From Bordetella parapertussis (GTDB taxonomy: Bacteria; Pseudomonadota; Gammaproteobacteria; Burkholderiales; JACQAP01), in assembly GCA_945900965.1 (NCBI GenBank), contig CAMDKM010000014.1, forward strand, positions 22,831 through 86,830: a stretch of 64,000 bases of DNA, in the 5' to 3' direction. Positions 1,732 through 19,329 of this stretch are shown here, piece by piece. The translations under genes were made by a program, and so were the position numbers. Every line of letters starts with the position of its first letter. Position 1 is the stretch's first letter. The notes below the pieces were generated by a model. That model had not been told where the DNA came from. It searched no databases and saw only the letters and a list, made by a program, of their open reading frames with translations.

Positions 1732-4700
1732 TTAATGAATACGGACACGGAATAACAAATCGAAATACTTGTTGCCGCCGACCGCCCCGTTCATCGTGCC
1801 GGCGGGCTTCAAGCGGATGTGACGGACCGTGGAATCGAAGCCGTTCCCATCAGGGATGGGTGTGTACGCCCAGTTGCTGCCATCCTGGGAGAAATCCACA
1901 CTGTCCGCGCCGCTGGCAAGGGACGTGAACGTCCAGCCCAGACCGGAAGCGGGTGTTCCGTCGGTGAACGCCACTGGCCCGGAGCCGAGTCCGGCAACAT
2001 CGTCCACGAACAAATCCACCTCCGCGGGCAACGGATCGTTGATAACCACGGAATTGGCGTCCACCGTACCCGGCCCGGAATTGGTCAACCTCACGGTATA
2101 CGCCAGAATGGCGCCGGGAATGGCCTTGGGATTGACGCCATTGTTGATCGGATCGGAAATCAGGCTGGCAAATTTCAACAAAGACAGGGACGGCATCAAC
2201 CCGGTCACCGTCAGCGTGGCGCTGGCATTGTTGACGAGATTCAGAGAGACCCCGCTCACGTTGGCTTGCAAGTTGTTATACACACCTGCCGTCGCCGAAG
2301 TGACGTCGACCGAAATGGCACAGGTGGCCTGTCCCAATGACAAGGTCCCTCCGCTGAACGTGATAGTGCTGCTGCCCGCAACCGCCGTAACCGTACCGTT
2401 GCATTGCGGGGAAGCTGCAGTGCTCGCGACCACGACGCCGGCCGGCAGGGTATCGATGAACCCGATCAAGACATTGACCGGCGCGGCGGCGCCCTGGGCC
2501 GGATTGCCGGTGTCATTGGTGAGAGTAAAGGTCAGTTGCGAAGTGGAATTAGTCGTGACCGTCGCGGGGCTGAAAGCTTTGGTGAGGGTCGCGGCACGCA
2601 CGTTGAAGGTGTCGTTCACGTTGGAAACCAACACGGTCGATCCGGTCAATCCGCTGATTCCGGGTGTGCCATTGCCCGTGGTAACCGTTCCCGCGGCACC
2701 CACGGTGACCGTCACGACGATGGTACAAACGGCATTGGCCGCCGCGTCATAGCCGTTAAAGAGACGGATACCCGTGCTGGTACCGGCAACCAGTGCGCCG
2801 CCTGCCGGATTGGTGATCGAAGCGCCGCCCGTCGTGCAGGTATTGGAGACCGTGCTGCGCCACACCATCTGCGCGCCATTGACGATCGGAAAGTTGTGGG
2901 TGAAACCCAGGTTGGTGATGGCAGCATTGCTGTTGTTGATGGTGTAAGTCAGCGTCACCGGCATGTTCACGCCAACCGGATCGGGTGAACTCACCATGGT
3001 CAGCGTGGGCGCCGCCGGTGCATTCACCGTCAAGGTGGCCGTGGCGGTGTTGCCGGTGCCGCTGTTGGTGGAAGTCACCGCGCCCGTGGTGTTGACGTTC
3101 GCTCCGATCATCGTGCTTGTGACGTTGACCGTGATTGAGCAGCTTGTCCCGGCGCCACCGGTGGCCCCCCCGGTGAGCGAGATCAGCGAATCACCCTGGG
3201 CGCTGCCGACCAGGAGCGTGCCACCGCAGGTATTGGTCAGTGCCGGCGTGGTCGCGACCACCATGCCCGCGGGAAACGGATCGACAAGCGCCAAACCGGC
3301 GAGCGAAACTGTGTTCCCTGCCGGATTGCTGATCGTGAGAGCGAGTGCGGAAGTACCCCCGGCGCTGATGGTGGCGGGCGAAAACGACTTGGCGATCACC
3401 GGTGAGAAATACACCTCGGTGATGTCCGCATCGCTGTTGTTGCCGGCATTGCCCGCCGGCTCGTTGCCGCCGGCCACACTGACATTGTTGGTGACCGGTG
3501 AAGCGGCTGCGGCTGCCGCGCCCACGGAAACGCTCAGCGTGATGGGCGGAGCGGACGTGTTGGCGGCGATGGCATTGCCCGCCACGCGATTGCAGGTCAC
3601 CACCAGGCCCACCGCCGTGCAGGCCGTCCAGCCGGTGCCGGTGCCGGAAACAAAGGTGAGCCCGGCGGGTAGGGTATCGGTGACCACCACCGGAGTGGTG
3701 CTGGTGGTGAGATCTCCGAGGTTGGTAACGGTCAGCGTGTAAGTCCCGTTGGTTCCCACCGTGAAATTGCCGTTGTGTGACTTGGTAACAACCAGATCCG
3801 GCGTATCCACCAGCGTGGCGACCAAAGCCGAGCTGTTGTTGGCGAGCAGGTTTGCCGACTCATTGGGATTGCTGACACTCGCCTGGTTGGTCACGCTGGG
3901 TGCCGCTGCGGCGGCGATGGTCACTGGAAAAACGACGGTGCTCGATGAAGCGCCCGCGGCAATAGCCGTGGCCCTGGTGCAAAGCACGATGGAATCCCCT
4001 ACTCCATTGTTGGCGCCCACGTTCGTGCACGTCCAACCCGCCCCGATGGTCCAACCCGCGCCGCCCGAGTTGGTCGTCAATGTCACCCCGGCAGGCAAGG
4101 TATCGGTCAGCGTATAGGTGCCTGTCGTGGCACGCCCACCGATGTTGTTGACGGTCAGCGTGTAGGTGGCGGTGTTGACCCCCAGCACAAAATTGGCGGC
4201 AGTGGTTTTGACCTTGGTGACGGTCAGATCGAAGTCCAGCACCGGTGTGGTCAGGCTGGTGGTGTTGTTGCCGCTGGCCGCGGCAGGTTCACCGCCACCG
4301 CTCACACTTGCGGTGTTGACCGCGCAAAGCGTTGCAGGGGTCGCCACGCAGTTTGCAACGTTGTTGGCAACGCTCACCGGGAAGACCACCGTCGTGGAGG
4401 TTGCGCCCGGCGCGATGGCCGTGTTGCGATTGCAGGACACCACGCTTCCGCCAAGCACCCCGGTACACGCCCAGCCGGCACCGATGGTCCAGCCTGCACC
4501 GCCGGACGCCGTGGTCAACGTCAAGCCTGTCGGCAACGTATCGGTGAGTGTGTAGGCATTCGCGCCCGTCGTGAGCCCGCCGACGTTGCTGACACTCACT
4601 GTATAACTTGCGGCAACGCCGACGGTGAAACTTGCGGCCGATGTCTTGTTAACGATCAAGTCGGGACAGCTCACCGCGCACACTGTGGTGGTGATGGTGC

Positions 4701-6309
4701 TGCTGTTGTTGGCGTTATTGCTCGCCAGTTCGCCGCCGCCCGACACCGTTGCAGTGTTGTTGACGCTGGGCGCGGCGGCGGCCGCCGGCAGGACAGTCAA
4801 GGTGATCGCGTTGGCATTGCTGGCGCCGGGAGCCATCGTCGCGCTGCTGGTGCAGACCATGCGTGTTCCGCCTGCCACATTGTCTCCGATAGCGGGCGTG
4901 TTGGCTGCGCAGGTCCAGCCGGTGCCGGTGGCGGACACAAACGTCAATCCCGTGGGCAACACGTCGGTGACGGTATAGGTACTGGCGCCGGTCGTCAGAC
5001 TGCCTAGGGTATTGTTGACGGTGATCGAATAGGTGGCATTGGTCCCGACAGCAAACGAGCTGGTGGCCGTCTTCACCGCGCGCAGGTCCGGACTTGGCGT
5101 GATGGTGACGCTGGCCTGATCGTCTTCGGTGGCCACGCTGTTGTTGGGAACGGAATCCGGATCGAACTGGTCCACGTAGCTGACTTGCGCGGTATTGACG
5201 ATCGGCGTGGCGCCGGTCACGCTGACGTTGAGCACCAGCGTCGCCGTGGCACCCGTGTTGAGCGTGCCCACACGCCAGGTGCCGGCCGGAATCACTCCCA
5301 CCGCCGTCGTCGAATAACTTCCCTGACTCGCCGTCGCCGACACAAAAGTCAGTCCGGCCGGCAGAAAATCCAGCACCCGCACATCGGTGGCGCGATCGAG
5401 TCCGTCGTTGATCACGGTGAGGGTGAAACTGACCGTATTGCCTGGGGTCGGATTACTGGCAACTTTGGTCAGACGCAAGTCCGCACTGCGATCTGGCGAG
5501 GTGCCCAGATCACCGAAAACCGCAACACCGGTTGCAGACATCGCCGTGGCGACAAGTGTGCCGATGTTCACCCGATACAGCGTGGTGCCCGGCGAGACCA
5601 CCATGCTGCCATCCCGCGCAAATGCGCATCCCGTGGCACTGCCTGGAAGTCCGGTAATGACGCCCAGGAGGGTGACGACCCCAGCAGGGGTCACCGTGTA
5701 CAAACTCTGCACCGCAACCATGTACAACACCCCGGTCACCGGATGCAGGCACAGGTCGCCACCGCCGGGCAGATTGCCGCCGTTGAATCCGCTGGCAGGT
5801 GTGACACTGAGAATCGCGCCGGTTGCCGGGTCCAGTCTCCACAGCGAACTGCCCGCGCCGGAATTCATTGCATAAAGATTCCCCGCCGAATCAAATCCGA
5901 GGCGAATCACGCCAGTGGTCGTTGACCCGGGCGTGCCGACCAGCACCGGCGCCACGCCCGGCGTGGCCGGGTCCCAGCGCCACAGGTTCGGATTGGCGGC
6001 AGCGGAATCGAGATAGAACAGCATGCCGTCGCTTGGTCGCGTGGCAAGTGTCGCGGCAAATGCAATGGTCGGTGCAAAGGTCGCAACCTGCGTGGCAGGC
6101 CCGCCAGCAACGGTATTGACGCTGTAAATGCCGGTGTCGATGACACCGTAAAACACTTCGGCTTTTGCGCCGGTGTGCATCAGGATCAAGAATGTCAGGG
6201 TGGACAAACAGGCGCTTCGCGCGAATTGCGCGCCGAACCGCTGGATGGCAGCCATCGCGAAGACGACGGACGCCGGCATGCCCAACAAAATTCGCCAGTT
6301 TCTTTTCAT
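1732..6309 (-). CDS. 1525-aa secreted repeat protein: N-terminal beta-propeller-like region, DUF11-type repeat array, Ig-like modules, shared C-terminal module (putative adhesin)
   Basis: Long ORF with repeated D-L-x-V-x-K..Y-T-L-T-V-x-N-x-G..T-D-x-L-P-x-G-L-T-F-V signatures (DUF11/conserved repeat domain). There are paired Cys in each module. The start ATG overlaps an upstream reading frame by ATGA. Confidence 0.85.
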   Translation of the reverse strand: MKRNWRILLGMPASVVFAMAAIQRFGAQFARSACLSTLTFLILMHTGAKAEVFYGVIDTGIYSVNTVAGGPATQVATFAPTIAFAATLATRPSDGMLFYLDSAAANPNLWRWDPATPGVAPVLVGTPGSTTTGVIRLGFDSAGNLYAMNSGAGSSLWRLDPATGAILSVTPASGFNGGNLPGGGDLCLHPVTGVLYMVAVQSLYTVTPAGVVTLLGVITGLPGSATGCAFARDGSMVVSPGTTLYRVNIGTLVATAMSATGVAVFGDLGTSPDRSADLRLTKVASNPTPGNTVSFTLTVINDGLDRATDVRVLDFLPAGLTFVSATASQGSYSTTAVGVIPAGTWRVGTLNTGATATLVLNVSVTGATPIVNTAQVSYVDQFDPDSVPNNSVATEDDQASVTITPSPDLRAVKTATSSFAVGTNATYSITVNNTLGSLTTGASTYTVTDVLPTGLTFVSATGTGWTCAANTPAIGDNVAGGTRMVCTSSATMAPGASNANAITLTVLPAAAAAPSVNNTATVSGGGELASNNANNSSTITTTVCAVSCPDLIVNKTSAASFTVGVAASYTVSVSNVGGLTTGANAYTLTDTLPTGLTLTTASGGAGWTIGAGWACTGVLGGSVVSCNRNTAIAPGATSTTVVFPVSVANNVANCVATPATLCAVNTASVSGGGEPAAASGNNTTSLTTPVLDFDLTVTKVKTTAANFVLGVNTATYTLTVNNIGGRATTGTYTLTDTLPAGVTLTTNSGGAGWTIGAGWTCTNVGANNGVGDSIVLCTRATAIAAGASSSTVVFPVTIAAAAAPSVTNQASVSNPNESANLLANNSSALVATLVDTPDLVVTKSHNGNFTVGTNGTYTLTVTNLGDLTTSTTPVVVTDTLPAGLTFVSGTGTGWTACTAVGLVVTCNRVAGNAIAANTSAPPITLSVSVGAAAAAASPVTNNVSVAGGNEPAGNAGNNSDADITEVYFSPVIAKSFSPATISAGGTSALALTISNPAGNTVSLAGLALVDPFPAGMVVATTPALTNTCGGTLLVGSAQGDSLISLTGGATGGAGTSCSITVNVTSTMIGANVNTTGAVTSTNSGTGNTATATLTVNAPAAPTLTMVSSPDPVGVNMPVTLTYTINNSNAAITNLGFTHNFPIVNGAQMVWRSTVSNTCTTGGASITNPAGGALVAGTSTGIRLFNGYDAAANAVCTIVVTVTVGAAGTVTTGNGTPGISGLTGSTVLVSNVNDTFNVRAATLTKAFSPATVTTNSTSQLTFTLTNDTGNPAQGAAAPVNVLIGFIDTLPAGVVVASTAASPQCNGTVTAVAGSSTITFSGGTLSLGQATCAISVDVTSATAGVYNNLQANVSGVSLNLVNNASATLTVTGLMPSLSLLKFASLISDPINNGVNPKAIPGAILAYTVRLTNSGPGTVDANSVVINDPLPAEVDLFVDDVAGLGSGPVAFTDGTPASGLGWTFTSLASGADSVDFSQDGSNWAYTPIPDGNGFDSTVRHIRLKPAGTMNGAVGGNKYFDLLFRVRIH
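3414..5484 (-). repeat. intragenic tandem array of five DUF11-type modules (~130-145 aa each) inside the 1525-aa protein
   Basis: Modules begin DLRLTKVAS, DLRAVKTAT, DLIVNKTSA, DLTVTKVKT and DLVVTKSHN. The last four each contain G(T)GW(T/A)C...(V/L)xC(T/N)(S/R) Cys pairs. Boundaries come from my residue count (aa ~276-965). Confidence 0.6.
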
Positions 6310-6600
6310 GGATTGCCTGCTTCGCGCGGATCGGCACCGGCGGTGGAAGTTGCGTCGGGACGACCCCAGCGCGTGTTTTGGTCAAACTTGAAGCGCATCT
6401 GCAGATAAATGCCCTGGGCGGTGTAACGCGCCGCGTCGAAATCGCGATCGGTGAATCCGCTGAGGTGATCGCCATGCGTGACCCTCCCGTTGGTCACCGG
6501 CGAGGAGCCCGTCGAGGGGCTCGAAGAACAGGAATATCTGCGAGCGATCGAAGCTATCAGCGACCTCCGCTGTATGCCTATGCCAGCTCAAAGTTTGGTC
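6306..6600 (-). pseudogene. fossil of the 3' end of the giant barrel gene (duplicate of ~9721-10000)
   Basis: ORF 6306..6497 reads ..[49 protein letters not shown]. The barrel protein C-terminus reads ..[49 protein letters not shown]. Nucleotide similarity is visible to about 6550-6600, and the ATGA overlap with the downstream gene is conserved. Confidence 0.7.
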
Positions 6601-6664
6601 TCGCGGATTGAATCGGGAAGCCGGTTCGCATTGCCATCCGGAAAAGAGGAACCGGGACAATTCC

Positions 6665-9600
6665 TCAACGTATGCGTGCCCGGAACAGAAAATCCGCATA
6701 CGGATTGCCGGAACCTGCGGCGTTCATGATGCCTTGCGGCTTGAGGCGGATATGAAGTACGGTAGTATCGAAGCCGTTCACATCCGGGCTCGGCGTGTAG
6801 GTCCAGACGCTGCCATCCTGGGAAAATTCCACGCTGTCCGTCCCGCTTGCGAGGGATGTGAAGGTCCAACTTAGGCCGCTCACCGGGGTTCCATCGGCAA
6901 ATGCCACCGGACCTGAACCGGGTCCGCCAATGTCGCCCACAAATAAATCCACATTCGCCGGCAGCGGATCGGTAATGACCACCGTGTTGGCATCTACAGC
7001 TCCCGGCCCGGAATTCATCAGACGCACGGTGTAGATCAGAATGGCACCCGGAATAGCCTTGGGATTGAGTGCGTTGTTGACCGGGTCGGAAATTATCACG
7101 GCCGATTTGACCAGGGTAATTACCGGAAATGCGCGCTCTCCAATGACAAACTCACCAAACCCGATGGCCTGGGTTATACCGGTCGCCGTAGTGTCGGTGG
7201 GATTCCTGGCGCCCAGCGTTGGATAACTCCACACGCCGCCGCTTTTGCGCCCGATGGCGAAGTTGGCCGTGTTGGCGCCCGCATCGATATCGCCCGCCAA
7301 AAAATTAAATGTGACGTTGTAGGTGGAAAAAGTCACGGAACCACCGGCGGTCAAGGTCCAATAGCGGTTCACGCTTTTGGCCGCATCAATACCGGAAGTG
7401 TTTGCAGTGGTGTCCGCATGGTCGCCGGCATCGGTACGAGCGGTAACACTGCTGTTCGCCAACGAGGAGGTGACGGCGAGCACGGAAACTGTCACCGGGG
7501 AATAGGCCGCCGCGCTACCGATGGGGAATGTGCAGGTTGTCGTGCCTGCGTTGGTGGGATAGTGCAGCCGCAAATTGCCCACCACATAACGCGCGGCGCC
7601 AGCGCCCGAAGTTGCCGTGGTGCAGTTGGATGTCACATCCAGAATGTTCGAGCCGGTGGCGACGAGCCCGCTGGTCAGCGTCAGCACATTGCTCGACGTG
7701 ACATTGCCGGTCAACGTGGCGCTGTTGCCTGCGCCCACGTTGATCGTCAGATTGTTGAAGTTGGCGGCGCCAATTTGCGGCGCGGCCCCGGTGAAGATCA
7801 CGGTCCCGGTTGGAGTAAAGGTGCCACCTGATTGCGACCATGTGTTTGCGCCCGTGCCGGTCACCGTGATGGTGTTACCGTTGTCGATCAGGGTTCCCGC
7901 GGACTGGTTGTATGTGCCGATGGAGATTGCGGTCGTGGCAGTTAGCGTGGTCGATCCGGTTGAGGAATGGTTGAATGCTCCGGTTACAGTGAGGGCTGCA
8001 TTGCCGGTCATCGTTGCCGTACCAGAGATGTTGAGGTTGTTCCCGATGCTGGTAACACCGGTCATGGTTTTTACGCCGCTGTTGCTCAGGGTCAGATTGA
8101 AGTAACTGACTGCGCAAACGGTTTGAGCGCCGGCCGCATTCCAGTCGACGGTGCTCGTCCCTGCCGTAAATGTACCCCCAACGCCGCTGCAACTTCCGCC
8201 AATGTTAAGTGTGCTTGAACCGCCATTAAGCGTACCGGCCGTTCTCGTCCACGCACCGGTGAACGTGTGCGTCAGCCCTGCTCCCAGATCCAGCGCCCCC
8301 CCCGCGCCGTTGATAGTGAGTCCGGCGCCGCTCACATTCCCGGTGAAGGTCGACGTGCCTGCGGTCTTGGTCATGGACACCAGGCCGGTCGTGGTGAAAC
8401 TCGCGATGCTTTGGGTAGCCATGGTATTGGCAATAACGATCGGGGAACTACCAGCCGTGAACGTACCCGTGGCGCCCTTGACAAAGTTACCGCCAAAAGT
8501 CACTTGCAGGTTATTGGTGGCTAACGTCGCGCCGTTGTTGATGGTCAGCGGGACCGACGCATTGAAGACTTTGGCAACATTCATGGTAATTGTTCCTGCA
8601 CCGGCAATGAGCACACCGCCGCTTGCCGCAAAGGGCGTTATCCATTCTTCTGCCGTGGCCGTGTAGGCACCTGGCTTGTTGTATTGCAGCGTCGCGTTTG
8701 CACCGTAGGTGACCACTCCAGCTCCTGTAACAACAACGGATGCGGTTCCTTCCAGGGAAAGTACGCCATTGACAGTGGGTGTCGTCGCGAAGGTCTTTGC
8801 ACCGGAACCGGAAAAGGTCAAGTTGCTGTAGATAGTCACTCTTCCGGTTTGCGCCGCACCGTTGTAATTGACCGTGTTGGTGGCCGCATTGGCGGTCAGC
8901 ACAGCAGGCGATGCATTCAATAACGCGCCACTCACATTGAGGGTCGAGCCGGCGGCATTGGTCCAGACGTTGGTATTGTTCGTGTCCACGATATTCAGAA
9001 TGGTCACGGTGCCGCTATTGGTCAGAGTCGCGGGGTTAGTCTGGTAAGTAATTGCCGAGGGCGCCGCATTAATCACCCCGGTTGCGCTGATGATGGTGCT
9101 GTTGGCATAGAGGCGGAGGAAATTGGCCGCCCCTGTAACTGTTGATGTGAGCGTGCCGTTGATTGTTAACACGGAACCAGGAACGGTTGTGCCGCCATTG
9201 CGGCCAGCACGAAACTGAGTGGCTGCGGTAAAAGTAAGATTGGTGCCGGCTGCAACAGACGGAGTGGTGCCGGAGGTGTAAAGTCGCGCCTCTCCGGTCA
9301 AGGTTCCGCTTCCAGAGATGACCGATGTATTACCGGTAATGTTTACTCCACCAGATCCGCCAGCTGTCGCGTCGTCCAACGTGCCATTAATGACGACATT
9401 TCCGGTGACATTCAGGAGGGTGCTGTTGAGTGTCAGGGTACCGCCGGAGTTAATGGTAAGACTGGTTACGGTGCGCGCGGCGTCCAGAGTGACGATGTTA
9501 GGCGAGGCAATGGTCACGGTATCCGCCGCACCCGGAATGCCTCCGGTTGCACCCACACATCCGACACCTGCCCCGCCCCAGGTCGTCTGTACGTTCCATG

Positions 9601-9724
9601 CAGTTGCAGCTATGGAGGTGCATGTGGCAGCGTAGGCATGACTACCCCCAACACTCAGTCCGGCAAGCGCAATCAGCAGCGCGCCTGTTTTGAAAGAATT
9701 TTTCACGATGACCGGCCACATCAT
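6665..9724 (-). CDS. 1019-aa secreted beta-helix-type repeat protein with shared C-terminal module (putative adhesin)
   Basis: Signal-like N-terminus (ALAGLSVGGSHAYA-A). It has long runs of G-T-L-T / N-x-x-G-x-x-T pseudo-repeats typical of parallel beta-helices. The C-terminal 149 aa are paralogous to the C-terminus of the 1525-aa protein. The start overlaps the barrel gene stop (ATGA at 9721-9724). Confidence 0.85.
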   Translation of the reverse strand: MMWPVIVKNSFKTGALLIALAGLSVGGSHAYAATCTSIAATAWNVQTTWGGAGVGCVGATGGIPGAADTVTIASPNIVTLDAARTVTSLTINSGGTLTLNSTLLNVTGNVVINGTLDDATAGGSGGVNITGNTSVISGSGTLTGEARLYTSGTTPSVAAGTNLTFTAATQFRAGRNGGTTVPGSVLTINGTLTSTVTGAANFLRLYANSTIISATGVINAAPSAITYQTNPATLTNSGTVTILNIVDTNNTNVWTNAAGSTLNVSGALLNASPAVLTANAATNTVNYNGAAQTGRVTIYSNLTFSGSGAKTFATTPTVNGVLSLEGTASVVVTGAGVVTYGANATLQYNKPGAYTATAEEWITPFAASGGVLIAGAGTITMNVAKVFNASVPLTINNGATLATNNLQVTFGGNFVKGATGTFTAGSSPIVIANTMATQSIASFTTTGLVSMTKTAGTSTFTGNVSGAGLTINGAGGALDLGAGLTHTFTGAWTRTAGTLNGGSSTLNIGGSCSGVGGTFTAGTSTVDWNAAGAQTVCAVSYFNLTLSNSGVKTMTGVTSIGNNLNISGTATMTGNAALTVTGAFNHSSTGSTTLTATTAISIGTYNQSAGTLIDNGNTITVTGTGANTWSQSGGTFTPTGTVIFTGAAPQIGAANFNNLTINVGAGNSATLTGNVTSSNVLTLTSGLVATGSNILDVTSNCTTATSGAGAARYVVGNLRLHYPTNAGTTTCTFPIGSAAAYSPVTVSVLAVTSSLANSSVTARTDAGDHADTTANTSGIDAAKSVNRYWTLTAGGSVTFSTYNVTFNFLAGDIDAGANTANFAIGRKSGGVWSYPTLGARNPTDTTATGITQAIGFGEFVIGERAFPVITLVKSAVIISDPVNNALNPKAIPGAILIYTVRLMNSGPGAVDANTVVITDPLPANVDLFVGDIGGPGSGPVAFADGTPVSGLSWTFTSLASGTDSVEFSQDGSVWTYTPSPDVNGFDTTVLHIRLKPQGIMNAAGSGNPYADFLFRARIR

Positions 9725-12700: not shown

Positions 12701-14769
12701 TGGGAAATCTCCCGCACTTTCTTGCCGCCGGCTTCCAGAATCTCGGCCTTGAACAGGTTGTCGCCTTCAATCAGCGGCACCCCGCGCCAGACGCTTACCG
12801 CGATCTTCTGATCGGCACTGAGTAGTGTGCCATCGAAGTTGAGATCGTCGACCTGATCGCCAATGGGATTTCTTAGCCGAACACTCTGCCCCGGCGCATG
12901 TTTGATGGCAATGCGCACCGCAGGCGAACGCGGATTGTGCCCGGCACCCGGAAACAGCCAGGCCACACCGGGTTGCTGACCAGCGAACCAGTCGATTTCC
13001 GCGCCGCTGGCCGCCACGTCGCTTATGACGGCGGCGCGCTTGTGCTGGCGCTCTTGAATTTCTCGCGGCGTCGAACCTGCCGCCGGTTTGATGTCGACCG
13101 ACTTGCGAGCGCCGGATTCGCTGCTCGGAGTACTGTTGGCGTCGCTGCCACAAGCCACGGACGTTTCCGCCACCGGCGTACGGCTGCGCTGGCCGGATTG
13201 TTCAAAACTGGCCAGGGCTTTTAACGGCTGGGTCGGACAATCGACTGCCTGGGCTTCGGCAACTGGAAGCGCGGTGTCGGCCGCGATCTCTACCGGGATG
13301 GCCGTCTGCGCCAATTCAGAAACGTTTGTCGAGGCAATCTGCACGATCGGAACGCTCGGAGGAATCACTGCCGCCGCCTGCTCCCCGACTTCGTGGGAAT
13401 AAACGATAAAGTCGGCACTGCGATTCTTCGCCATGGCGTCGAAGTTCTTGTTGTCGATCAATGGCGCGTTGGTGCCGCGGCCGCTGATGCGAACCCGCTC
13501 CGGGGCAAGGCCCAGGCGCGGGCCAATGAATTCGCCCAAGGCCTTGGCGCGGGCATGCGAGAGTTCATCATTGCTCTCGTAGTACTTGTGGCAGTCGTTC
13601 GACAACGCGCGGCTATCGGCGTAGCCGATCAGCTCCACCTTCTCAATGCCACCTTTGGCGCGCAATTTGGCGAGCAATTTCTCCAGGGCAGCCCGATCTA
13701 CCGGCGGCAATACGCTGCTGCAGCGATCGAATTGCGCGTTGAATACTTTGGCGCTGACAATCAATGTGGCCGGCGCGGGAAGCGGCTGCACCACGGGCAA
13801 CTCAGGAACCGGCACCGCCGCGGGCACTTCGACAGGCAGCGGAATTTCCACGCTCGCCGGTTTCAGCGGCGCAACAATGCGAAACTCAATCAAGCGTTTC
13901 CATGCGGAACGGGTCTCACGCCCCAGCGAGAAGGTCGCCAGCGAATCGGATATTGCTGGGTCCGGCGCCGGCTTGCCGTCCACGCGGGTGGAGCCCGGTT
14001 CGTAGCTCATGCCGGCGGGCAGCATGACCATGATCTTCAGATCGTCGACCGGTGTGCTGCCATCCACTTCAACGCGCTGTTCCAGTCCCGCACCCGCATG
14101 TTCCGTCTTGCCCTGCGCCTGGCTCAGGCGAATGCCGATTTCCGCGCGCGGCTTGCTGGTAAAGAAATCGGCACGCCAGAGCCCGCCGCCCTTCACATCC
14201 ACGAACTGGGAAAAGCTGCGCCCGGCGAAGCGCGTATTTTGCATGCAGGATTGCATCTGCTGGCCGGGCGGCAGGCTGTCCACATCCAGTTGCACGACAT
14301 GGGTGCCTGGGCGCACCGCTTCGAAGTGATATTGGCCGTCCTTGTCCGTGACGACATAGGTACCGTTTTCCAGCATGACCCGAACATTGGCCACGCCCTT
14401 GAGTTCGCTCCAGGGCGTACCGCACTCGCCTTCAAACACCCGCCCGATAATTGTGACGCGCCCGCTGAATAGAGGTTCGCGGATGCGCACCGCCACTTGG
14501 GCAACATTGGAATTCAGCACACCGCCACTGGCCGTCGCGCGTGCGGTGTTTATCGCGTAGCCCGGCAACACGCCGGCGCCCAGAATCACAACATAACTCA
14601 CACGCGCCGTGGCTCCGACCGCCAGATCGCCGATGCCAATAGTCAGCGTCCTGCCATCGATGCCAATACCCGGATCGGGCACAGGCTGGTCGTTGACTCG
14701 CAGCGAGCCAGCCTGATAGCGCATCCCCGGGGGCAGGACGTCCGTAACAACAGGGACGGTGGCTACCAC
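9721..14769 (-). CDS. C-terminal 1682 aa of a giant outer-membrane protein: DUF11 remainder, CarboxypepD_reg/CnaB-like, DUF11, Pro/Ala linker, OmpA-like domain (~13396-13767), Big_1-like domains, ~850-aa predicted beta-barrel (~9770-12310)
   Basis: ELIGYADSRALS..ELSHARAKALGEFI..RISGRGTNAPL..NRSADFIV matches the OmpA_C-like pattern. The C-terminal part has alternating-hydrophobic strands ending GIYLQLRFKF. It is in the same frame as ORF 14794..15897 and separated from it only by TGA. The ORF-track start is an internal GTG with no signal peptide. Confidence 0.8.
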   Translation of the reverse strand: MVATVPVVTDVLPPGMRYQAGSLRVNDQPVPDPGIGIDGRTLTIGIGDLAVGATARVSYVVILGAGVLPGYAINTARATASGGVLNSNVAQVAVRIREPLFSGRVTIIGRVFEGECGTPWSELKGVANVRVMLENGTYVVTDKDGQYHFEAVRPGTHVVQLDVDSLPPGQQMQSCMQNTRFAGRSFSQFVDVKGGGLWRADFFTSKPRAEIGIRLSQAQGKTEHAGAGLEQRVEVDGSTPVDDLKIMVMLPAGMSYEPGSTRVDGKPAPDPAISDSLATFSLGRETRSAWKRLIEFRIVAPLKPASVEIPLPVEVPAAVPVPELPVVQPLPAPATLIVSAKVFNAQFDRCSSVLPPVDRAALEKLLAKLRAKGGIEKVELIGYADSRALSNDCHKYYESNDELSHARAKALGEFIGPRLGLAPERVRISGRGTNAPLIDNKNFDAMAKNRSADFIVYSHEVGEQAAAVIPPSVPIVQIASTNVSELAQTAIPVEIAADTALPVAEAQAVDCPTQPLKALASFEQSGQRSRTPVAETSVACGSDANSTPSSESGARKSVDIKPAAGSTPREIQERQHKRAAVISDVAASGAEIDWFAGQQPGVAWLFPGAGHNPRSPAVRIAIKHAPGQSVRLRNPIGDQVDDLNFDGTLLSADQKIAVSVWRGVPLIEGDNLFKAEILEAGGKKVREISQNIHYANAPARAELVLEQSYLKADGIRSPVLAVRFLDRDGKPVRAGVSGPMILHAPYRSQQEIEREQTRQLSGMDRFEPQYVVEGDDGIAYIELAPTTDSGTVQLDLNFQLPGDNRRSQELRAWLEPQARDWVVVGFAEGTVGYTTLKDNSQSLNGEVEDGHYSDGQISLYAKGRVLGKWILTMAYDSDKADDRRKSLLGTIDPNEYYTLYGDGSEQRHDAPSQSKLYLKLERGQFYALFGDYETGLTQTQLSRYSRTLNGIKVENGGGPVVFTAFAAETPQSFAHDEIQGDGTSGLYRLTQRGIVLNSEKIRIETRDRLHAEKIIDSRALTRHIDYDIDYSNGTLFFRQPVNSRDAGFNPIVIVAEYETLGRANKELNAGGRIGVTLNEGRVQAGVSAIRDENRLSSTNLAGADLKIRVGKDSELRFEAAQTSGQAATLSTEGIAWLTEFEYHSGRYDALLYARRQEPGFGLNQQSFSTAAQQKIGAQGRMRLSDTWTVQGEAYQQENLGSNTTRDAAQAKLRHETSEGGVSVGAQSISDRTEGGALAGQDYRSEQATLSVNRWFMNRKLELSAQSETALGGRSDSVDFPDRYLLGATYALTDNVRLLAGQEFTDGAYDTSTTRVGAQVVPWKGARLDSTLNQSQISEYGPRTFAQMGMTQAVLINERWGMDASMDSSQTFNHSAQPGPVLNPNHPVAAGGSLGGIPGATEDYVAVSAGATYRAPLWSWNGRAESRDGDTTDRYGFVSHFLRQAQTGVAFGSSAQFLRTEQAAGATSRLASVDLSWAFRPLGLHWSILDRLELRYEDVQNGSGASLTGFNGLSATNARSRRLINNFALNRVSREWTDIDREGNLFQRYERNQWSLYYGAKYALDTFDGTSYSGFTDLIAVEMRHDINSWIDFGLHASSLNARSAGSHVYSYGPSIGISPVTNGWVTLGYNFRGFIDRDFDAARYTAQGIYLQLRFKFDQNTRWGKRAVTSTDGADANEATKP

Positions 14770-14793
14770 GGCTTCGTTATTGCGCAGATCCAG

Positions 14794-15897
14794 TCAATAC
14801 TGCAAAAAGTCACCGACAGATGCCTCGGCCCTCGACACACTCTTTTGCAGGAAGAACAGGCTCGTCGCCGGGTCGGCAGGAATGTCAATGTTCAGCGCCG
14901 GGCCCACCGCCACCGTAAAAACCTCGCCGCGCGAACCTGTCACCACGGAATAGGGATTGCCAGCCCCATCGTTGGCCATGCTGTTGTTGGGCACGCTCGA
15001 GGGTACGCGATGACCCGGCACCGGCCCCAACTGCAATCGATAGCTACCCACTGCCACGAGCGGAAAACGAAACCCGCCCGCAGGCAGGTTGTAAATTTGT
15101 CCGCCACCGTCGGTGACCGTGTTGCCGGTGATAACCGTCGAGGGGAAACTGCTCACGCCATCGTCGCCGAGAACCGTGGCCGGCGATCCGGTGACGTCGT
15201 TAAAAAGCGTCACGGTAACGCCATTGATTGGCGTGCCAGTGACAGAATCGAAAACAAATCCAAACGGATCCACCAAAGCCGCCTGCACAACAGTGTCGGA
15301 CAGGTAGATCGGATCCTGGTAATTCACCGTAATGCGCGTGTTCGTGGTAACCGATATTTGACCGTTATTGGAGCTCACGGCAAACGTGGGGCCCGCGCTG
15401 GGTATCATCGCGGCGAACACACCGCTGTTGGCGCTGGTTTCCTGCATTAACAAGGTTTCGCTGTCGCCCGGCACGGTGTCGCCGGTGATCGTGATGCTGA
15501 TCGTTTCCGCCACCAGCGGATCTAGATTGCGATTGGCATCGGCTAACGTGATATAGACAGGCTGGTTGATGTGGTAGACGCCCGTGGGCAAGACTTCGAT
15601 GAGTCCCGCGCCGAAGTCAAAACTGGTACCGCTTCCCGGCGAGGATTGGTAAAAAATGACGTTGGCCGGTGTCGGAGGCGGAGTGCTGTTGAGACTGGTT
15701 GTATTGGAAGACAGTGTGACCGGACCCGATGGGCCGGTGAAATTCAAGGTCGCCGTATTGTTGATCGGCGCACCTGTTGCAACGGCTGACCCCATCAATA
15801 GGGCACAAGCCATTATCGCCACATGCAAAGCGAGCAGGCGAGCGTATCCAGGAGCCTTGTTTAACAAGGCACGAAGGGAGAAAAACAGCGTCGGCAA
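14794..15897 (-). CDS. N-terminal 367 aa of the same giant outer-membrane protein (signal peptide, Ig/CnaB-like domains, first half of a DUF11 repeat), ending at an in-frame TGA
   Basis: TTG/ATG start region with an LLALHVAIMACALLMGSAVA-TGAP signal. It ends ..SVSRAEASVGDFLQY-TGA. Downstream, the same frame continues LDLRNNEAVVATVPVVTDVLPPGMRY, completing a DUF11 repeat. Confidence 0.75.
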   Translation of the reverse strand: MPTLFFSLRALLNKAPGYARLLALHVAIMACALLMGSAVATGAPINNTATLNFTGPSGPVTLSSNTTSLNSTPPPTPANVIFYQSSPGSGTSFDFGAGLIEVLPTGVYHINQPVYITLADANRNLDPLVAETISITITGDTVPGDSETLLMQETSANSGVFAAMIPSAGPTFAVSSNNGQISVTTNTRITVNYQDPIYLSDTVVQAALVDPFGFVFDSVTGTPINGVTVTLFNDVTGSPATVLGDDGVSSFPSTVITGNTVTDGGGQIYNLPAGGFRFPLVAVGSYRLQLGPVPGHRVPSSVPNNSMANDGAGNPYSVVTGSRGEVFTVAVGPALNIDIPADPATSLFFLQKSVSRAEASVGDFLQY

Positions 15898-15928
15898 GAC
15901 TGACTTTCGGTCCGAGTAGAAACTCGAA

Positions 15929-15955
15929 TGGCCGGCCCCCTGAGGGGACCGGCCA
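15929..15955 (-). terminator. GC-rich hairpin with partly U-rich tail between the second DUF11 subunit gene and the barrel gene (candidate partial terminator)
   Basis: The minus-strand RNA is UGGCCGGUCCCC-UCA-GGGGGCCGGCCA: a 12-bp stem including one G-U, with a 3-nt loop. It is followed by UUCGAGUUUCUACUCGG. Confidence 0.45.
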
Positions 15956-15983
15956 ACCCGGTTTCCTTACTCCGCGTAGGTGC

Positions 15984-17129
15984 TTAGTTCACCGTCACGC
16001 GAAAGATTGCCTTGAAGCGCGCGGCCGCCGCGATACTCGGTGCACGCACGGTGCCTGCTCCGGCCGTGGTGACATTAAAGTCTCCACCATCGGGGTCGGT
16101 TTCATCCGGATCCGTGTTGTTGTCGTCTTCGGCCGTGCCGCTACCCACGTCACAGGTGGAGCCGGCCCCGGTTGCCGCGGTCTTGATGCTGCCCGCGACA
16201 TAGGTGGTATTCGCCGGGATACCGTCCGTGAGGACAATGCTGGCTGCCGCAGCCGCACCGGTATTATTCACGTCCAGGCAGTATTCGATCACGGCCCCGG
16301 GGATGGTTTTCGGGAAACTTACGCCGTTGAACGGATCGCTGACCACGGTGGAACTCTTCACCACGACAATTGCAGCGGTGACTACGTCGTACTCGTCATC
16401 GTCGCTGTGACGGCCGTCCCTTGCGGCATCGGTATCGCCGGCCACGTCCCCGAACACCGTGTCGGTAAAGGCGGCGTTATCGGTGACTCCGGCATTGGTC
16501 TGCGCTGCGTCGGCTGCCAGCACACCCGGCGTGGCCGTATAGGCTCCCGTGCCTGAGGTCGTGGCATCCTGCGCCGCAATCGCAGTCAGTGTCAGACCGG
16601 CGGTATCGCCGTTGACGGTGGTGGCCGGAACACTGGCGACAATAAACACGGTGCGCACTCCGTCTGCCGCCAATTCATCAATAAAGGTCGCGGTATCAGT
16701 TAAGACTTCATAGGTGCCGTTGGCGTTGACATCGGCGAACACCTGCGGACCTGTGACGTCGAAGCTGTCAACATCCGCAAATGCAGTCGCGGCAAGCGTG
16801 GCATCCTGGGTTGCAGCCAGACGGAAATCGAGCACTGCATTGGAGCTGTTGGTTACCGTGAAGGTCAGTACCTGCGCGGTCGATCCCGGAACCACTGCGG
16901 TCGATGTTCCTCCGACTTCCGCCACCGTCAGATTGATGCGCCGATCGACCAGGAATTGCGCGGTGTTACTGTTGACTACAGGCTGGGGAACTGCCCCCAC
17001 GTCGTACGCTACCGAAGCGGAATTGCTGATGGTAGTTCCGGCCGCCGTGCCCGCCGAAAAAGCCGGGGTGGCAACCAGCAGTGATCCCATGGTAAGGGAG
17101 ACACCTAGAACAAGTTTTTTGAAACACAT
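15984..17129 (-). CDS. 381-aa secreted two-domain DUF11-like protein (putative structural subunit, paralog 2)
   Basis: ATG at 17129 with AGGAG 7 nt upstream, and signal MCFKKLVLGVSLTMGSLLVATPAFS-AG. It is highly similar to the 17832..19031 product (e.g. NSASV.YD..AVPQPV.NSNT.QFLVDRRINLTVAEVGG). The C-terminal domain is SDPFNGVSFPKTIPGAVIEY..FRVTVN. Confidence 0.85.
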   Translation of the reverse strand: MCFKKLVLGVSLTMGSLLVATPAFSAGTAAGTTISNSASVAYDVGAVPQPVVNSNTAQFLVDRRINLTVAEVGGTSTAVVPGSTAQVLTFTVTNSSNAVLDFRLAATQDATLAATAFADVDSFDVTGPQVFADVNANGTYEVLTDTATFIDELAADGVRTVFIVASVPATTVNGDTAGLTLTAIAAQDATTSGTGAYTATPGVLAADAAQTNAGVTDNAAFTDTVFGDVAGDTDAARDGRHSDDDEYDVVTAAIVVVKSSTVVSDPFNGVSFPKTIPGAVIEYCLDVNNTGAAAAASIVLTDGIPANTTYVAGSIKTAATGAGSTCDVGSGTAEDDNNTDPDETDPDGGDFNVTTAGAGTVRAPSIAAAARFKAIFRVTVN

Positions 17130-17166
17130 GATAAAACTCCTATCGAAAAAAGAGCGTTGGAAACCA

Positions 17167-17225
17167 GGTGCGATCCGCGACTGCATTACATTTACCAATC
17201 CGGAGGTGGCAATGCGGATCGCACC
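17167..17225 (-). promoter_or_regulatory. 12-bp perfect inverted repeat (GGTGCGATCCGC / GCGGATCGCACC) with a 35-nt loop in the intercistronic region upstream of paralog 2
   Basis: Read directly: 17167-17178 and 17214-17225 are exact reverse complements. In transcript orientation the hairpin ends ~37 nt before the ATG at 17129. Confidence 0.35.
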
Positions 17226-17299
17226 TCTACCGCCTCCGGCAATACTCTGAAATATGCGCTGGCCACTGTCGCGGCCAGCACAAGAATTCGATGTGGTAA

Positions 17300-17815
17300 T
17301 CACTTGATCACCGCCTTGTAGGTCACGCTGTCCGAGGCTCCGGGACTCACGGGAGCCATTACCATCCAGCGCACATGGGTCACGTCTTCGCCTTTGGCCA
17401 CACGGGTCACGCCATTGGCGGCTTTGACACGCAGTGTTTCAAGCGCGCCGAATTGTTTCCCCTTGTCCACGGAGAATTCGATGCGGGTGCCGGCGCCTTG
17501 CGCACTTCCCGGAATGTAGGCAAGGTGCTCTGGCACCGGATTGTTTACGACCACCTTTTCCGCCGGCTTGTCGCCGGTGTTGCGGTAAGTGATGACATAG
17601 ATGACTTCCGTGCCGGGCATCGCAGTCTTCACCGGCTCGCGTTTTTTTTCCGGTTTGCCATCCTTGTTCTTCACGACGCTTTCCTGAAAGGCCTCCGTCG
17701 TGACTTGCATTGTGTCGGCAGCAGCGCTAATGGACGAGGCGCTCGCCAGAATTCCAGTAACGAAAAATACCGGTACAACGAGGTGCCTGGACAGTCTAAA
17801 AAAAGAGTGCATCAT
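17300..17815 (-). CDS. 171-aa secreted single-domain DUF11-like protein
   Basis: Strong SD (GAGGAGG) 16 nt after the upstream stop. Signal VPVFFVTGILASASSISA-AAD. DUF11 signature PGTEVIYVITYRNTGDKPAEKVVVNNPVPEHLAYIPGS. It ends VTYKAVIK. Confidence 0.8.
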   Translation of the reverse strand: MMHSFFRLSRHLVVPVFFVTGILASASSISAAADTMQVTTEAFQESVVKNKDGKPEKKREPVKTAMPGTEVIYVITYRNTGDKPAEKVVVNNPVPEHLAYIPGSAQGAGTRIEFSVDKGKQFGALETLRVKAANGVTRVAKGEDVTHVRWMVMAPVSPGASDSVTYKAVIK

Positions 17816-17831
17816 GTTTGTTCCTCCTCGA

Positions 17832-19031
17832 TCAGTTGATGGTCACTTGAAAAATTACGATATGGGTAACGGGTGCCACGACCGTTCCCAGCAGCACTTC
17901 AATTTGTCCGCCAGGAAGTGGCGCGTTGATGAATCGGCCGCTGTCGGTATCCGCGGTGTCACTAAGCGCAACCGAGTCCAGTCTCATTGACCCGGCGACA
18001 TAGGTAGTGCCTGCCGGAATAAGGTCGTCGATGCGCACACCCGTCAACATGCCGGCGCCGGCAATGTTGAGGGTCAGTGTGTATTCGATGATGGCGCCGG
18101 GAATAGGCGGGCCAGAGCCGACCACAGCTTGCGTCTTGACGAATCCGGCTGTTGCCTGAGTGACGAAGTATTCATCGTCGTCACTGTGACGGGCGTCCCT
18201 TGCCACATCGGTGTCGCCTGCGGGATCACCGAACAGCGTGTCGGTGAAGGCGGCGACGTCACTAACTGCCGCATTGGTCTCAGCAGCATCGGCGGCCAGC
18301 ACACCCGGCGTTGGTACAAGGGCTCCGGTGCCATCGGTGCTCTGCGCGGCAACTGCCGTTAGCGTCAGGCCCGCGGTATCGCCGCCTACCGTGGTGCCCG
18401 GAATATTTGCGACGACGAATACCGTGCGCGCAGTGTCCGGCTGAAGTTCGTCGAGGAAATTCGCGTTATCAGTGCCGACGTCGTAGGTGCCGTTGCCGTT
18501 GGCGTCGACAAATGCCTGCGGCGCCGTCGCATCGAAATTGTCGGTACGCCCGAATGCCGTGGTGGCGGAAGCAGCGTCCTGCGATACGATCAGTCGAAAA
18601 TCCAGTACGGCGTTGGAGGTGTTTGTCACCGTAAAAGTCAGCACTTGAGCACTTGCCCCGGGAGCCCCCAGGGTCGCTGCACCGCCAACTTCCGCCACCG
18701 TCAGATTGATGCGGCGATCGACCAGGAACTGGGAAGTATTACTGTTGGCGACAGGCTGGGGCACCGCCGCAATGTCGTAGGTGACCGATGCCGAATTGTC
18801 GACAGGGGTGCCGGCCAAGGTGCCAGCGGCGTAAACCGCCGACGAGAGCAGGCCCAAAACACCGAACGACACTGCCCTGGTCAGAACGCAAATTCGCGAA
18901 CTCTTTACTTTGGTTTTAGCTATGTCGAGAATCTCAAGAAGTGCCGATTTGCGTGGCACGAGCGTCGCCAGCAGTAGCCCCGGCGTGTGCTTCAATTCAG
19001 CCTTTCTCTGGCTTTTGACTAACACTTCCAT
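17832..19031 (-). CDS. ~399-aa secreted two-domain DUF11-like protein (putative structural subunit, paralog 1); start uncertain
   Basis: Paralog of 15984..17129 with signal-like segment AVSFGVLGLLSSAVYA-AG. The ORF-track start 19067 is TTG. ATG 19031 and GTG 18959 are alternatives, and none has a good SD. Confidence 0.75.
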   Translation of the reverse strand: MEVLVKSQRKAELKHTPGLLLATLVPRKSALLEILDIAKTKVKSSRICVLTRAVSFGVLGLLSSAVYAAGTLAGTPVDNSASVTYDIAAVPQPVANSNTSQFLVDRRINLTVAEVGGAATLGAPGASAQVLTFTVTNTSNAVLDFRLIVSQDAASATTAFGRTDNFDATAPQAFVDANGNGTYDVGTDNANFLDELQPDTARTVFVVANIPGTTVGGDTAGLTLTAVAAQSTDGTGALVPTPGVLAADAAETNAAVSDVAAFTDTLFGDPAGDTDVARDARHSDDDEYFVTQATAGFVKTQAVVGSGPPIPGAIIEYTLTLNIAGAGMLTGVRIDDLIPAGTTYVAGSMRLDSVALSDTADTDSGRFINAPLPGGQIEVLLGTVVAPVTHIVIFQVTIN

Positions 19032-19075
19032 TTGCACCGTGTCGCGGTGCAGCAGAATTTGCCGCAATTGTAGTT

Positions 19076-19154
19076 AAAAAAAGCGTAATTGCACAGGACG
19101 ATCGAATTATTGTTGTGTATAAACAATAAGTTCTGGCATCTTTCTCAATTACGC
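19076..19154 (-). terminator. nested hairpin followed by U7 in the leader of the DUF11 locus (terminator of the protease gene or attenuator)
   Basis: In minus orientation the outer stem is GCGTAATTG/CAATTACGC (19146-19154 / 19083-19091). The inner stem is TTATTGTT/AACAATAA (19107-19114 / 19122-19129). T7 follows directly (A7 at 19076-19082 on the plus strand). Confidence 0.4.
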
Positions 19155-19329
19155 GCTGTTAATATCGCAATCGGCAGGCCAATAGGTCGACAGTCGTCAG
19201 TGAAATTGGGTACAAATCAGGGGAAAAAGCAGTGCGGGAAAATTCAGACTAAAACGGGGCGAGTCGAAAGCGCGGAAATAACGCTACCTGGCTGTTCCGA
19301 TAGCGGAAAAAACCTGCTGCGCTAGAGAG

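Follow-up and report, generated by a model that had tools for sequence, protein, structure and literature searches.

What is built at the cell surface by a cluster of six co-directional genes, five of whose products end in related domains and one of which encodes a giant beta-barrel protein? We addressed this question for a stretch of DNA from a Bordetella parapertussis assembly (GCA_945900965.1, contig CAMDKM010000014.1, positions 22,831-86,830 of the forward strand); this window spans 64,000 nucleotides (nt), and all coordinates given here are positions within it. A sequence-only reading had proposed that the window encodes an undescribed secretion or assembly system in which the barrel protein exports or anchors two small paralogous subunits and two giant adhesins. 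The six minus-strand genes on which that proposal rested, here called A to F, are all present at 1732-19067 (Table 1), and all six products begin with a signal-peptide-like N-terminus, as had been claimed. We hold with high confidence that the locus is a dedicated surface system centred on D, the barrel protein. As to its form, sequence comparisons lead us to favour, on balance, a donor-strand-complemented and possibly isopeptide-locked fibre, with E or F at the tip, a polymer of C and A, and the N-terminus of D as pore and anchor.

DUF11 domains, recently renamed CLIPPER, have a CnaA-like fold in which an Asp catalyses formation of a Lys-Asn isopeptide bond (PMC12617251). Repeats of this type had been ascribed to every product of the locus. 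With PF01345 and its cutoff of 24.6 bits, that claim held for F (213 bits), B (30.1) and the isolated C-terminal modules of C (24.7) and E (26.7); matches to TIGR01451 were found in A, B, C and F. The similar endings noted for the five non-barrel proteins (FRVRIH, FRARIR, FRVTVN, FQVTIN and YKAVIK) proved to be the last strand of homologous CLIPPER/DUF11-type domains. The C-terminal modules of E and F, of ~150 residues (aa), share 73% identity over 154 aa, and that of C is related both to these and to B. Complete repeats in F follow the pattern DL.v.K ... v.v.D.LP.G ... f.v.v ... i.NtA.v ... a.v.v. The C-terminal CLIPPER domains of A, C, E and F include the Lys strand and the D.LP strand, and the chain stops right after 'f.v.v', such that the last two strands are missing; B has a fold truncated in the same way. 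Those two strands ('i.NtA.v' and 'a.v.v'), with the isopeptide Asn included, are found at the mature N-termini of A, C and D: AGTAAGTTIS-N-SASVAYD...NSNTAQFLV in C, ...PVD-N-SASVTYD... in A, and APIN-N-TATLNF...SSNTTSLN(S), followed by a TPPPTP linker, in D. A and C thus have both donor and acceptor elements, E, F and B have only the acceptor, and D has only the donor. This distribution fits a head-to-tail fibre and supports the assignment of putative shaft, tip and anchor roles; the exporter or anchor, major-subunit and tip-adhesin functions suggested earlier gain support in the same way, with D apparently not homologous to ushers.

We determined how widely these elements are conserved. Among 51 sequences of the C family, N36, K258 and D302 are invariant, as is a Cys pair, C284/C326, which suggests disulfide formation in the periplasm. 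C/A proteins from loci of three proteobacterial classes retained the Asn in 118 of 119 cases, the Lys and the Asp in 119 of 119 each, and the final-strand end in 117 of 119. For E/F-type modules, found on 31 proteins of 405-2759 aa, Lys and Asp were each present in 27, and no column past D.LP reached 50% Asn or more. In the B family (n=61), an invariant Asn (TNPxP, 60/61) stands where the catalytic Asp would be, and only 17 members keep the Lys. The Lys, Asp and Asn of the triad are conserved, yet they are spread over both ends of C/A or over separate proteins. A hidden Markov model (HMM) of the donor matched 92/120 C/A proteins, 0/61 B proteins and 2/31 E/F-type open reading frames (ORFs), both of the latter being C-like (420-457 aa) and located at the position of gene C; the donor motif was not found in E or F themselves. 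This HMM was seeded mostly on C and missed most D donors, and a stricter regular expression matched 16/68 C; donors in D were instead scored by inspection and with a looser pattern ([TV]IxN[TIV]A...SNxVx, then a Pro-rich linker) with a background control. The looser pattern occurred just past the D signal peptide in 64 of 67 loci, as compared with 2 of 428 background windows; at the other three loci, one donor was missed by the pattern and two ORFs were misframed. E, F and B lack a donor and D lacks a catalytic acceptor, yet the Lys and Asp are kept in E/F and the Asn is kept in D, a combination that favours complementation in trans.

Joining the two halves of the domain in sequence restored the continuity of the alignment. 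An HMM of the complete repeats aligned a chimera of the C-terminus of C followed by its mature N-terminus colinearly, over positions 12-128 of 134 and with a gapless junction. Appending the N-terminal peptide extended DUF11 coverage from 13-73 to 13-96 for C and from 11-83 to 11-110 for B, and the chimera of A, which was scanned only with its N-terminus appended, covered positions 8-113 of 114. The appended peptide also raised the DUF7619 score by 9-12 bits, whereas a shuffled peptide gave zero gain. A phmmer search of the acceptor-donor chimera against the PDB returned nothing useful, and no 'Rosetta-stone' protein carrying C-type middle domains in tandem was identified in a search for them. 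The AlphaFold2 (AF2) model of the C monomer had a predicted local distance difference test score (pLDDT) of 86.5, with the protein's own N-terminal strands ordered at pLDDT 81-94, and Foldseek matched the model to tandem immunoglobulin (Ig)-like arrays resembling the stalks of isopeptide-bearing adhesins. AF2 commonly self-complements pilins.

The ordered N-terminal strands of the C monomer are also what would be expected from a different arrangement, in which D is a wide outer-membrane pore tethered to peptidoglycan, the C-terminal domain common to A, B, C, E and F is a handle recognised for export through D, comparable to the C-terminal domain of T9SS cargo at SprA, and there is no polymerisation: the N-terminal strands of A, C and D would complete the domain in cis, and the products would be monomeric surface or secreted proteins. 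The occurrence of the shared module on very diverse cargo (405-2759 aa) and the weak Foldseek matches of the giant barrel to SprA, described below, are consistent with such a translocon, as is the presence in D of a degenerate CLIPPER domain, ending in '...IEFRIVAP', that could accept the D N-terminal strands in cis. This degenerate domain, however, lacks the Lys and the Asp, even though the donor Asn of D is near-invariant; E, F and B have no donor, yet E/F retain the isopeptide Lys and Asp with no conserved Asn in cis; and the division into proteins with both elements, with the acceptor only and with the donor only maps exactly onto shaft, tip and anchor. We therefore regard export without polymerisation as unlikely. 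The search for homologs of the E/F module gave mostly fragments at contig ends, and is hence informative about cargo diversity to a small extent only. Long contigs also encode the E/F-type module on proteins of 170-280 aa (P0308 from Sphingomonas sp., 176 aa; P0304; P0275; P0266), which are acceptor-only and nearly free of passenger.

We next considered the barrel protein. The sequence-only reading described a ~2050-aa protein with an internal OmpA-like domain, Big_1-like domains and a C-terminal region of barrel-like strand periodicity. The OmpA-like domain was recovered (PF00691, 36.1 bits against a cutoff of 27.2, residues 347-450; profile search against OmpA-like domains in the PDB, E=5.6e-13), as was the strand-rich region; the single chain was not, since the gene consists of two ORFs parted by an in-frame TGA. 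Pfam did not detect Big_1, and AF2 placed two Ig-like sandwiches at that position. A profile search with D matched its complete CLIPPER domain to PDB 9IFR (E=5.9e-6). Sequence searches of Pfam, NCBIfam and the PDB identified the OmpA and CLIPPER parts of D only, and the C-terminal ~1090 aa had no match in any of the three. AF2 modelling of this region from a 64-sequence alignment (pLDDT 75.8, predicted template-modelling score 0.72) gave two Ig-like sandwiches followed by ~38 long beta strands over the last ~860 aa, in agreement with the barrel that had been suspected; the last predicted strand had a pLDDT <50. The chain ends in a conserved, beta-signal-like YLQLRFKF followed by a 25-aa tail. 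Foldseek comparison of the model with the PDB returned only large outer-membrane barrels at probability 1.0 (LptD, Deinococcus SlpA, MtrB, FimD and SprA), all with low template-modelling (TM) scores, the best target-normalised value being 0.40 for the FimD translocation domain (0.40/0.20). Since the matches are to generic barrels, with TM-scores of at most 0.4, D cannot be assigned to a fold family; the model indicates a giant barrel protein of the outer membrane with no detectable membership of a characterised family. A superfamily of single-chain outer-membrane barrels of 38 and 40 strands in Proteobacteria was predicted by Solan et al. (2021), who give no function, operon context or subunit analysis for it (PMC8346858), and D may belong to this superfamily.

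A conserved beta domain is inserted into the barrel region (Table 1), at a position that recalls the usher plug. It is the most conserved segment in the D family (DEIQG.GTSG.Y.L ... DYDIDY..GTLFF) and has no Pfam match. In several D proteins of Parasphingorhabdus/Sphingorhabdus, tandem 'QPEFAEEQPQ...' repeats form an acidic, Pro/Gln-rich spacer of variable length between the signal peptide and the donor motif (loci L029, L030, L044, L048, L050, L055, L059 and L072).

Relatives of D are numerous, and their neighbourhoods are conserved. The family includes >400 close homologs of 1600-2400 aa, named in the sources only as 'OmpA family protein' or 'TIGR01451 repeat protein'; a class of ~1600-1800 aa lacks the OmpA-like domain. 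Relatives of the barrel region are encoded at no fewer than 522 genome loci (>=522), in Burkholderiales, Moraxellaceae, Lysobacter, Cognatiluteimonas lumbrici, Steroidobacteraceae, Microbulbifer and many Sphingomonadales, with cultured carriers that include Parasphingorhabdus marina DSM 22363 and Sphingorhabdus buctiana. The region was represented by 3357 clusters at 50% identity, and in every representative the barrel was C-terminal. Gene neighbourhoods bore out the expected co-conservation: the order B-C-D on one strand was found at essentially every one of about 80 loci with enough flanking sequence, in Alpha-, Beta- and Gammaproteobacteria, frequently with a second C paralog. Most loci of Beta- and Gammaproteobacteria and of Allosphingosinicella encode at least one downstream protein with the E/F C-terminal module. 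When six-frame neighbour ORFs were clustered all against all, only the CLIPPER-sharing set (82 loci) and B (60 loci) were widely conserved; every other cluster occurred at 37 loci or fewer and could be put down to shadow ORFs or to synteny within a lineage. The neighbour families of the 82 loci included no conserved chaperone, sortase, ATPase or inner-membrane partner. Four loci from metagenome-assembled genomes labelled Nitrospirota (L011, L012, L022 and L027) encode D proteins 49-58% identical to the proteobacterial query, and may be due to mis-binning or horizontal transfer.

These neighbourhoods bear on a second alternative, namely that D is mainly self-contained, as a connector between outer membrane and peptidoglycan or a giant autotransporter-like adhesin, with its CLIPPER-bearing neighbours exported independently by machinery encoded elsewhere. 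The combination of OmpA-like domain and barrel follows the logic of SlpA, which was at rank 3 in the Foldseek comparison (PMC9388160); the order of passenger at the N-terminus and barrel at the C-terminus is that of classical autotransporters; and the locus contains no ATPase or inner-membrane partner. Nonetheless, the homologs of ~1600-1800 aa that lack the OmpA domain, including those of Sphingomonadales, keep the barrel, the donor, B and C. Co-regulation alone hardly accounts for strict B-C-D synteny over three proteobacterial classes, the barrel gene is coupled to cargo by an ATGA overlap in two instances (D with E, and a barrel-gene relic with F, see below), and ~38 strands go far beyond what an anchor or a 12-strand autotransporter pore needs. 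A self-contained D thus appears improbable.

In the fibre arrangement that we favour, subunits would be exported by Sec and would fold in the periplasm, where the N-terminal strands of an incoming subunit would complete the C-terminal domain of the preceding one (donor-strand complementation, the principle used by chaperone-usher pili). A spontaneous intermolecular Lys-Asn isopeptide bond would then lock the joint, as in 'exchange and lock' or a natural Tag/Catcher pair; we propose this additional covalent locking tentatively. The acceptor-only proteins E and F would start the fibre as distal adhesins, C and A would extend it as the shaft, and the donor-only D would terminate and anchor it. 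The barrel of D would serve as the conduit, with room for Ig-like domains already folded in the periplasm, and its OmpA-like domain would tie the base of the fibre to peptidoglycan. B, with an acceptor fold that lacks the Lys and Asp, would hold donor strands reversibly, as a cap, an initiator or a chaperone. The operon layout, together with hairpins after the subunit genes, fits a high ratio of subunits to platform. To the broader proposal of a new Gram-negative class of pilus or secretion system, in which self-ligating subunits with split CLIPPER domains are extruded via a ~38-strand barrel and covalently capped by the N-terminus of D, we give slightly less than even credence.

Several points weigh against this arrangement. 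The scheme is wholly in silico; a closed barrel, the placement of the inserted domain and the geometry of the Lys-Asn pair are putative. The gains in DUF11 score from the appended peptides are themselves small (0.2-1.4 bits), and the order that AF2 gives to the N-terminal strands of C is equally expected for a circularly permuted CLIPPER domain completed in cis. Extra segments in the E/F and B modules might likewise complete the fold in cis. The donors of D differ in sequence from those of C in the same genome. The N-terminal ~690 aa of D would have to exit through the protein's own barrel while the OmpA domain stays in the periplasm, a lasso-like topology that is plausible. Finally, D is interrupted by a nonsense codon in this window.

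We compared the locus with known assembly systems. By Pfam, NCBIfam and PDB sequence searches and by hhalign against FimD and FimA, no product was found to belong to a known secretion or pilus family. D had no match to the usher family PF00577 at E<=0.01, and hhalign of the D family with E. coli FimD gave a probability of 1.2%. The C family aligned with FimA at a probability of 2%, the subunit split being analogous but in a different fold. The absence of a sortase, PapD-like chaperone, POTRA protein, type 1 secretion component or autotransporter domain, noted earlier, was upheld for the eight proteins scanned (seven ORFs of the locus and the upstream protease). PapD-type domains (PF00345/PF02753) were absent from all locus proteins by Pfam; no sortase family was matched in Pfam or NCBIfam, and in 117/119 C/A proteins F.V.V is the final strand, followed by neither LPXTG nor a membrane anchor. 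Pfam and NCBIfam matched no type 9 secretion system (T9SS) family, and the TM-score against SprA was at most 0.17; nor did they match the type V families (PF03797, PF11924, ShlB/FhaC and POTRA), the barrel region having ~38 predicted strands. Literature searches found no description of this gene cluster.

In organisation the locus resembles several known systems. As in chaperone-usher pili, an outer-membrane barrel platform is encoded between subunit and adhesin genes, hairpins follow the major-subunit gene, incomplete Ig-like subunits have an N-terminal extension that could complete the preceding subunit, the candidate tip adhesin has no donor, and an extra domain interrupts the barrel near its start, roughly where the usher plug lies. 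Unlike those systems, with which no homology was found, the locus combines a barrel of ~38 rather than 24 strands with subunits that lack two strands rather than one, in a CnaA-like CLIPPER fold with a Lys/Asp/Asn triad; it has no PapD-type chaperone, and its platform is extended by a donor segment and a long stalk, to which many members add an OmpA domain. Sortase-assembled pili of the SpaA/RrgB/BcpA type share CnaA/CnaB-type Ig-like domains with isopeptide triads, the covalent fibre proposed here, the sequence of tip, shaft and basal anchor, and attachment ultimately to peptidoglycan; here, however, there is no sortase or LPXTG, the host has two membranes, and linkage would be by an autocatalytic split domain rather than by transpeptidation. 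Donor-strand exchange with an isopeptide lock has been described for the TasA-family protein BsaA of Clostridium perfringens (bioRxiv 10.1101/2024.11.04.621531) and for archaeal threads (Saci_0406; PMC9715654). The mechanism that we propose is similar, with an N-terminal donor strand entering a neighbour and an intermolecular isopeptide following in the absence of a sortase. The folds bear no relation to the one proposed here (TasA-like and thread pilin on one side, CLIPPER on the other), the hosts of BsaA and threads have one membrane or are archaeal, there is no outer-membrane platform, and the bond chemistry differs (N-E-K in BsaA, Asn to alpha-amine in threads).

The T9SS likewise has a very large single-chain outer-membrane barrel, SprA/Sov (36 strands in SprA), and diverse folded, Sec-exported cargo sharing a C-terminal beta-sandwich domain. 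No sequence relation was found, however; the present locus is proteobacterial rather than from Bacteroidota, lacks PorU/V/K/L/M/N, and has cargo whose shared domain is a CLIPPER that includes catalytic residues. CLIPPER/DUF11 fibrillar adhesins, such as B9T28_05395 of Acinetobacter silvestris (PDB 9IFR), form intramolecular Lys-Asn isopeptides with a catalytic Asp and are associated with an OmpA-like anchor (PMC12617251). They share the domain family and the OmpA association with the locus, but in them one polypeptide holds complete domains in tandem and OmpA at the C-terminus, whereas here the terminal domain is divided over separate proteins and a giant barrel would serve as the anchor. If the model holds, the system works like chaperone-usher and Gram-positive covalent pili at once and is a member of neither. 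In our view the locus probably represents an undescribed kind of outer-membrane fibre-assembly system, of three core components, that is widespread in Proteobacteria.

If this is true, the locus would define a distinct outer-membrane assembly pathway beside chaperone-usher, type IV and type V pili, curli, the type 5 secretion system and the T9SS, present in thousands of environmental Proteobacteria and with a core of ~1000 aa for which neither Pfam nor NCBIfam gave a matching model. Diderm bacteria would have in it their first covalent pilus made without a sortase, a covalently anchored fibre with exchangeable tip adhesins; it would provide a function for one of the largest predicted beta-barrels; and it would offer natural orthogonal Tag/Catcher pairs for protein engineering. 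Intact loci in cultured carriers (Parasphingorhabdus marina DSM 22363, Sphingorhabdus buctiana CGMCC 1.12929 and Cognatiluteimonas lumbrici 1.1416) make these proposals directly testable.

Is the system functional in the genome analysed here? A single in-frame TGA at 14794-14796 splits D into two same-frame ORFs (14794-15897 and 9721-14769). The stop lies within the motif GDFLQY*LDLRNN of CLIPPER 1, in a UGA-C context. Homologs read GDFLQYRL at this site, with Arg in 66, Gln in 17 and Thr in 15 of 107 motif matches (120 listed homologs), and with Arg in all eight closest homologs shown, indicating a CGA-to-TGA nonsense mutation. Selenocysteine was considered and rejected, as homologs carry Arg, Gln or Thr at this position and not Cys. 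The identical truncated product is recorded on 5 ENA contigs, and an 88%-identical relative runs uninterrupted for 2066 aa. The stop leaves a secreted, donor-bearing fragment of 367 aa and a barrel fragment with no signal peptide. With the donor N-terminus of D separated in this way from the barrel, the system should be inactive here unless UGA-C is read through. No bacterial stop context is known to be leakier than UGA-C, such that low-level synthesis of full-length D is possible.

A relic lies between E and F. E stops at 6665, and the 355-nt interval before F contains the 3' end of another barrel gene, D'. In blastn, 215 nt of this relic align with the end of D at 77% identity (E=1e-45), and in translation 91 aa align at 63%. 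ATGA overlaps had been reported at two gene junctions: that at 9721-9724 joins the D stop to the E start codon, as stated, whereas that at 6306-6309 joins F to the TGA of the relic and not to E. The relic and F are thus arranged exactly as D and E are, which implies that F once followed its own barrel gene. The relic comprises the last ~70-90 codons and recalls the 'orphan cassette' footprints seen in polymorphic toxin loci; it may be the trace of an earlier exchange of the adhesin downstream of D, or could allow such exchanges in future.

The TGA in D and the deleted second barrel gene suggest that the locus is inactive or decaying here, and from its sequence it is probably disabled in this genome. 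Whether it is a functionless remnant, with D a pseudogene and the other genes drifting, is evenly balanced in our judgement. A stop codon at a site where homologs have Arg, seen on 5 contigs, the D' relic, and a fragment past the stop with no signal peptide all point to decay. On the other hand, there is one lesion only, no other ORF is broken (the longest has 1525 aa), the triad is complete in A and C, and the UGA-C context may permit some full-length D. In either case, decay would bear on activity in this genome and not on the nature of the system.

The features of the locus are listed in Table 1. Gene A probably starts internally to its ORF, at an ATG at 19031 or a GTG at 18959; its gene call is 399 aa. 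For gene C, gene calls and 120 listed homologs (254-449 aa, mostly 360-390 aa) place the start at 17129 rather than at that of the 439-aa ORF. The Gly/Thr-rich repeat region of E has no Pfam match. Hairpins had been noted after the subunit genes, and RNA folding showed both to be strong: the B-C spacer folds with a free energy (dG) of -68.5 kcal/mol (z -5.9), with 0/200 shuffles equally stable, and the C-D spacer is described in Table 1. The B-C spacer has no clear U-tract and may act in attenuation or in RNA processing or stability. A consensus scan for promoters and terminators found no enrichment.

Table 1. Features of the locus and its flanks, in window coordinates
Feature	Position	Strand	Description
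MsrA gene	1027-1638	+	peptide-methionine sulfoxide reductase
Gene F	1732..6309	-	1525 aa; signal peptide, N-terminal globular region, five or six complete CLIPPER repeats, four DUF7933 repeats, C-terminal acceptor module; candidate alternative tip adhesin
F acceptor module	1735-2190	-	
D' relic	6306..6581	-	3' end of second barrel gene; 6306-6520 by nucleotide match, to 6581 by tblastn
Gene E	6665..9724	-	1019 aa; signal peptide, Gly/Thr-rich repeat region, C-terminal acceptor module; candidate tip adhesin
E acceptor module	6668-7123	-	
Gene D as read through	9721-15897	-	~2058 aa
D remainder	9721..14793	-	same frame as N-terminal fragment; rest of CLIPPER 1, CnaB/CarboxypepD_reg-like domain, degenerate CLIPPER, Pro-rich linker, OmpA-like domain, linker, Ig-like pair, barrel region
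D beta-barrel region	9799-12306	-	~38 predicted strands
D inserted beta domain	11623-11856	-	conserved, ~75 aa; D ORF residues 972-1049; after about strand 7
D Ig-like domains	12313-13002	-	two domains
D OmpA-like domain	13420-13731	-	peptidoglycan-binding type
D CLIPPER domain 1	14476-14859	-	complete domain
D N-terminal fragment	14797..15897	-	367 aa; signal peptide, donor strands, Pro-rich linker, conserved sandwich domain, CnaB-like domain, start of complete CLIPPER
D donor strands	15685-15771	-	
C-D spacer hairpin	15898..15983	-	dG -43.3 kcal/mol, z -4.5
Gene C	15984..17129	-	381 aa; signal peptide, donor strands, Ig-like middle domain, ~50-aa linker, acceptor CLIPPER domain; C-terminal end FRVTVN; candidate major subunit
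C acceptor CLIPPER domain	15987-16376	-	
C donor strands	16941-17054	-	
B-C intergenic RNA	17150..17299	-	two long stem-loops straight after B stop
Gene B	17300..17815	-	171 aa; signal peptide and one CLIPPER-type domain ending at YKAVIK strand; no donor motif; candidate non-covalent acceptor
Gene A	17832..19067	-	411-aa ORF; C paralog, 55% identity
A acceptor CLIPPER-type domain	17835-18155	-	
A donor strands	18714-18827	-	
M66/TIG protease gene	19330-22095	-	921 aa, secreted

The secreted protein encoded upstream of A has IPT/TIG domains and an M66/reprolysin-like metalloprotease region. It was considered as a core component and rejected, since no relatives other than the three closest (L001, L003 and L004) have it next to the locus. 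At its other end the locus is flanked by the MsrA gene. The relative L001 (88% identical) shares this flank and lacks gene F, consistent with F being a later addition.

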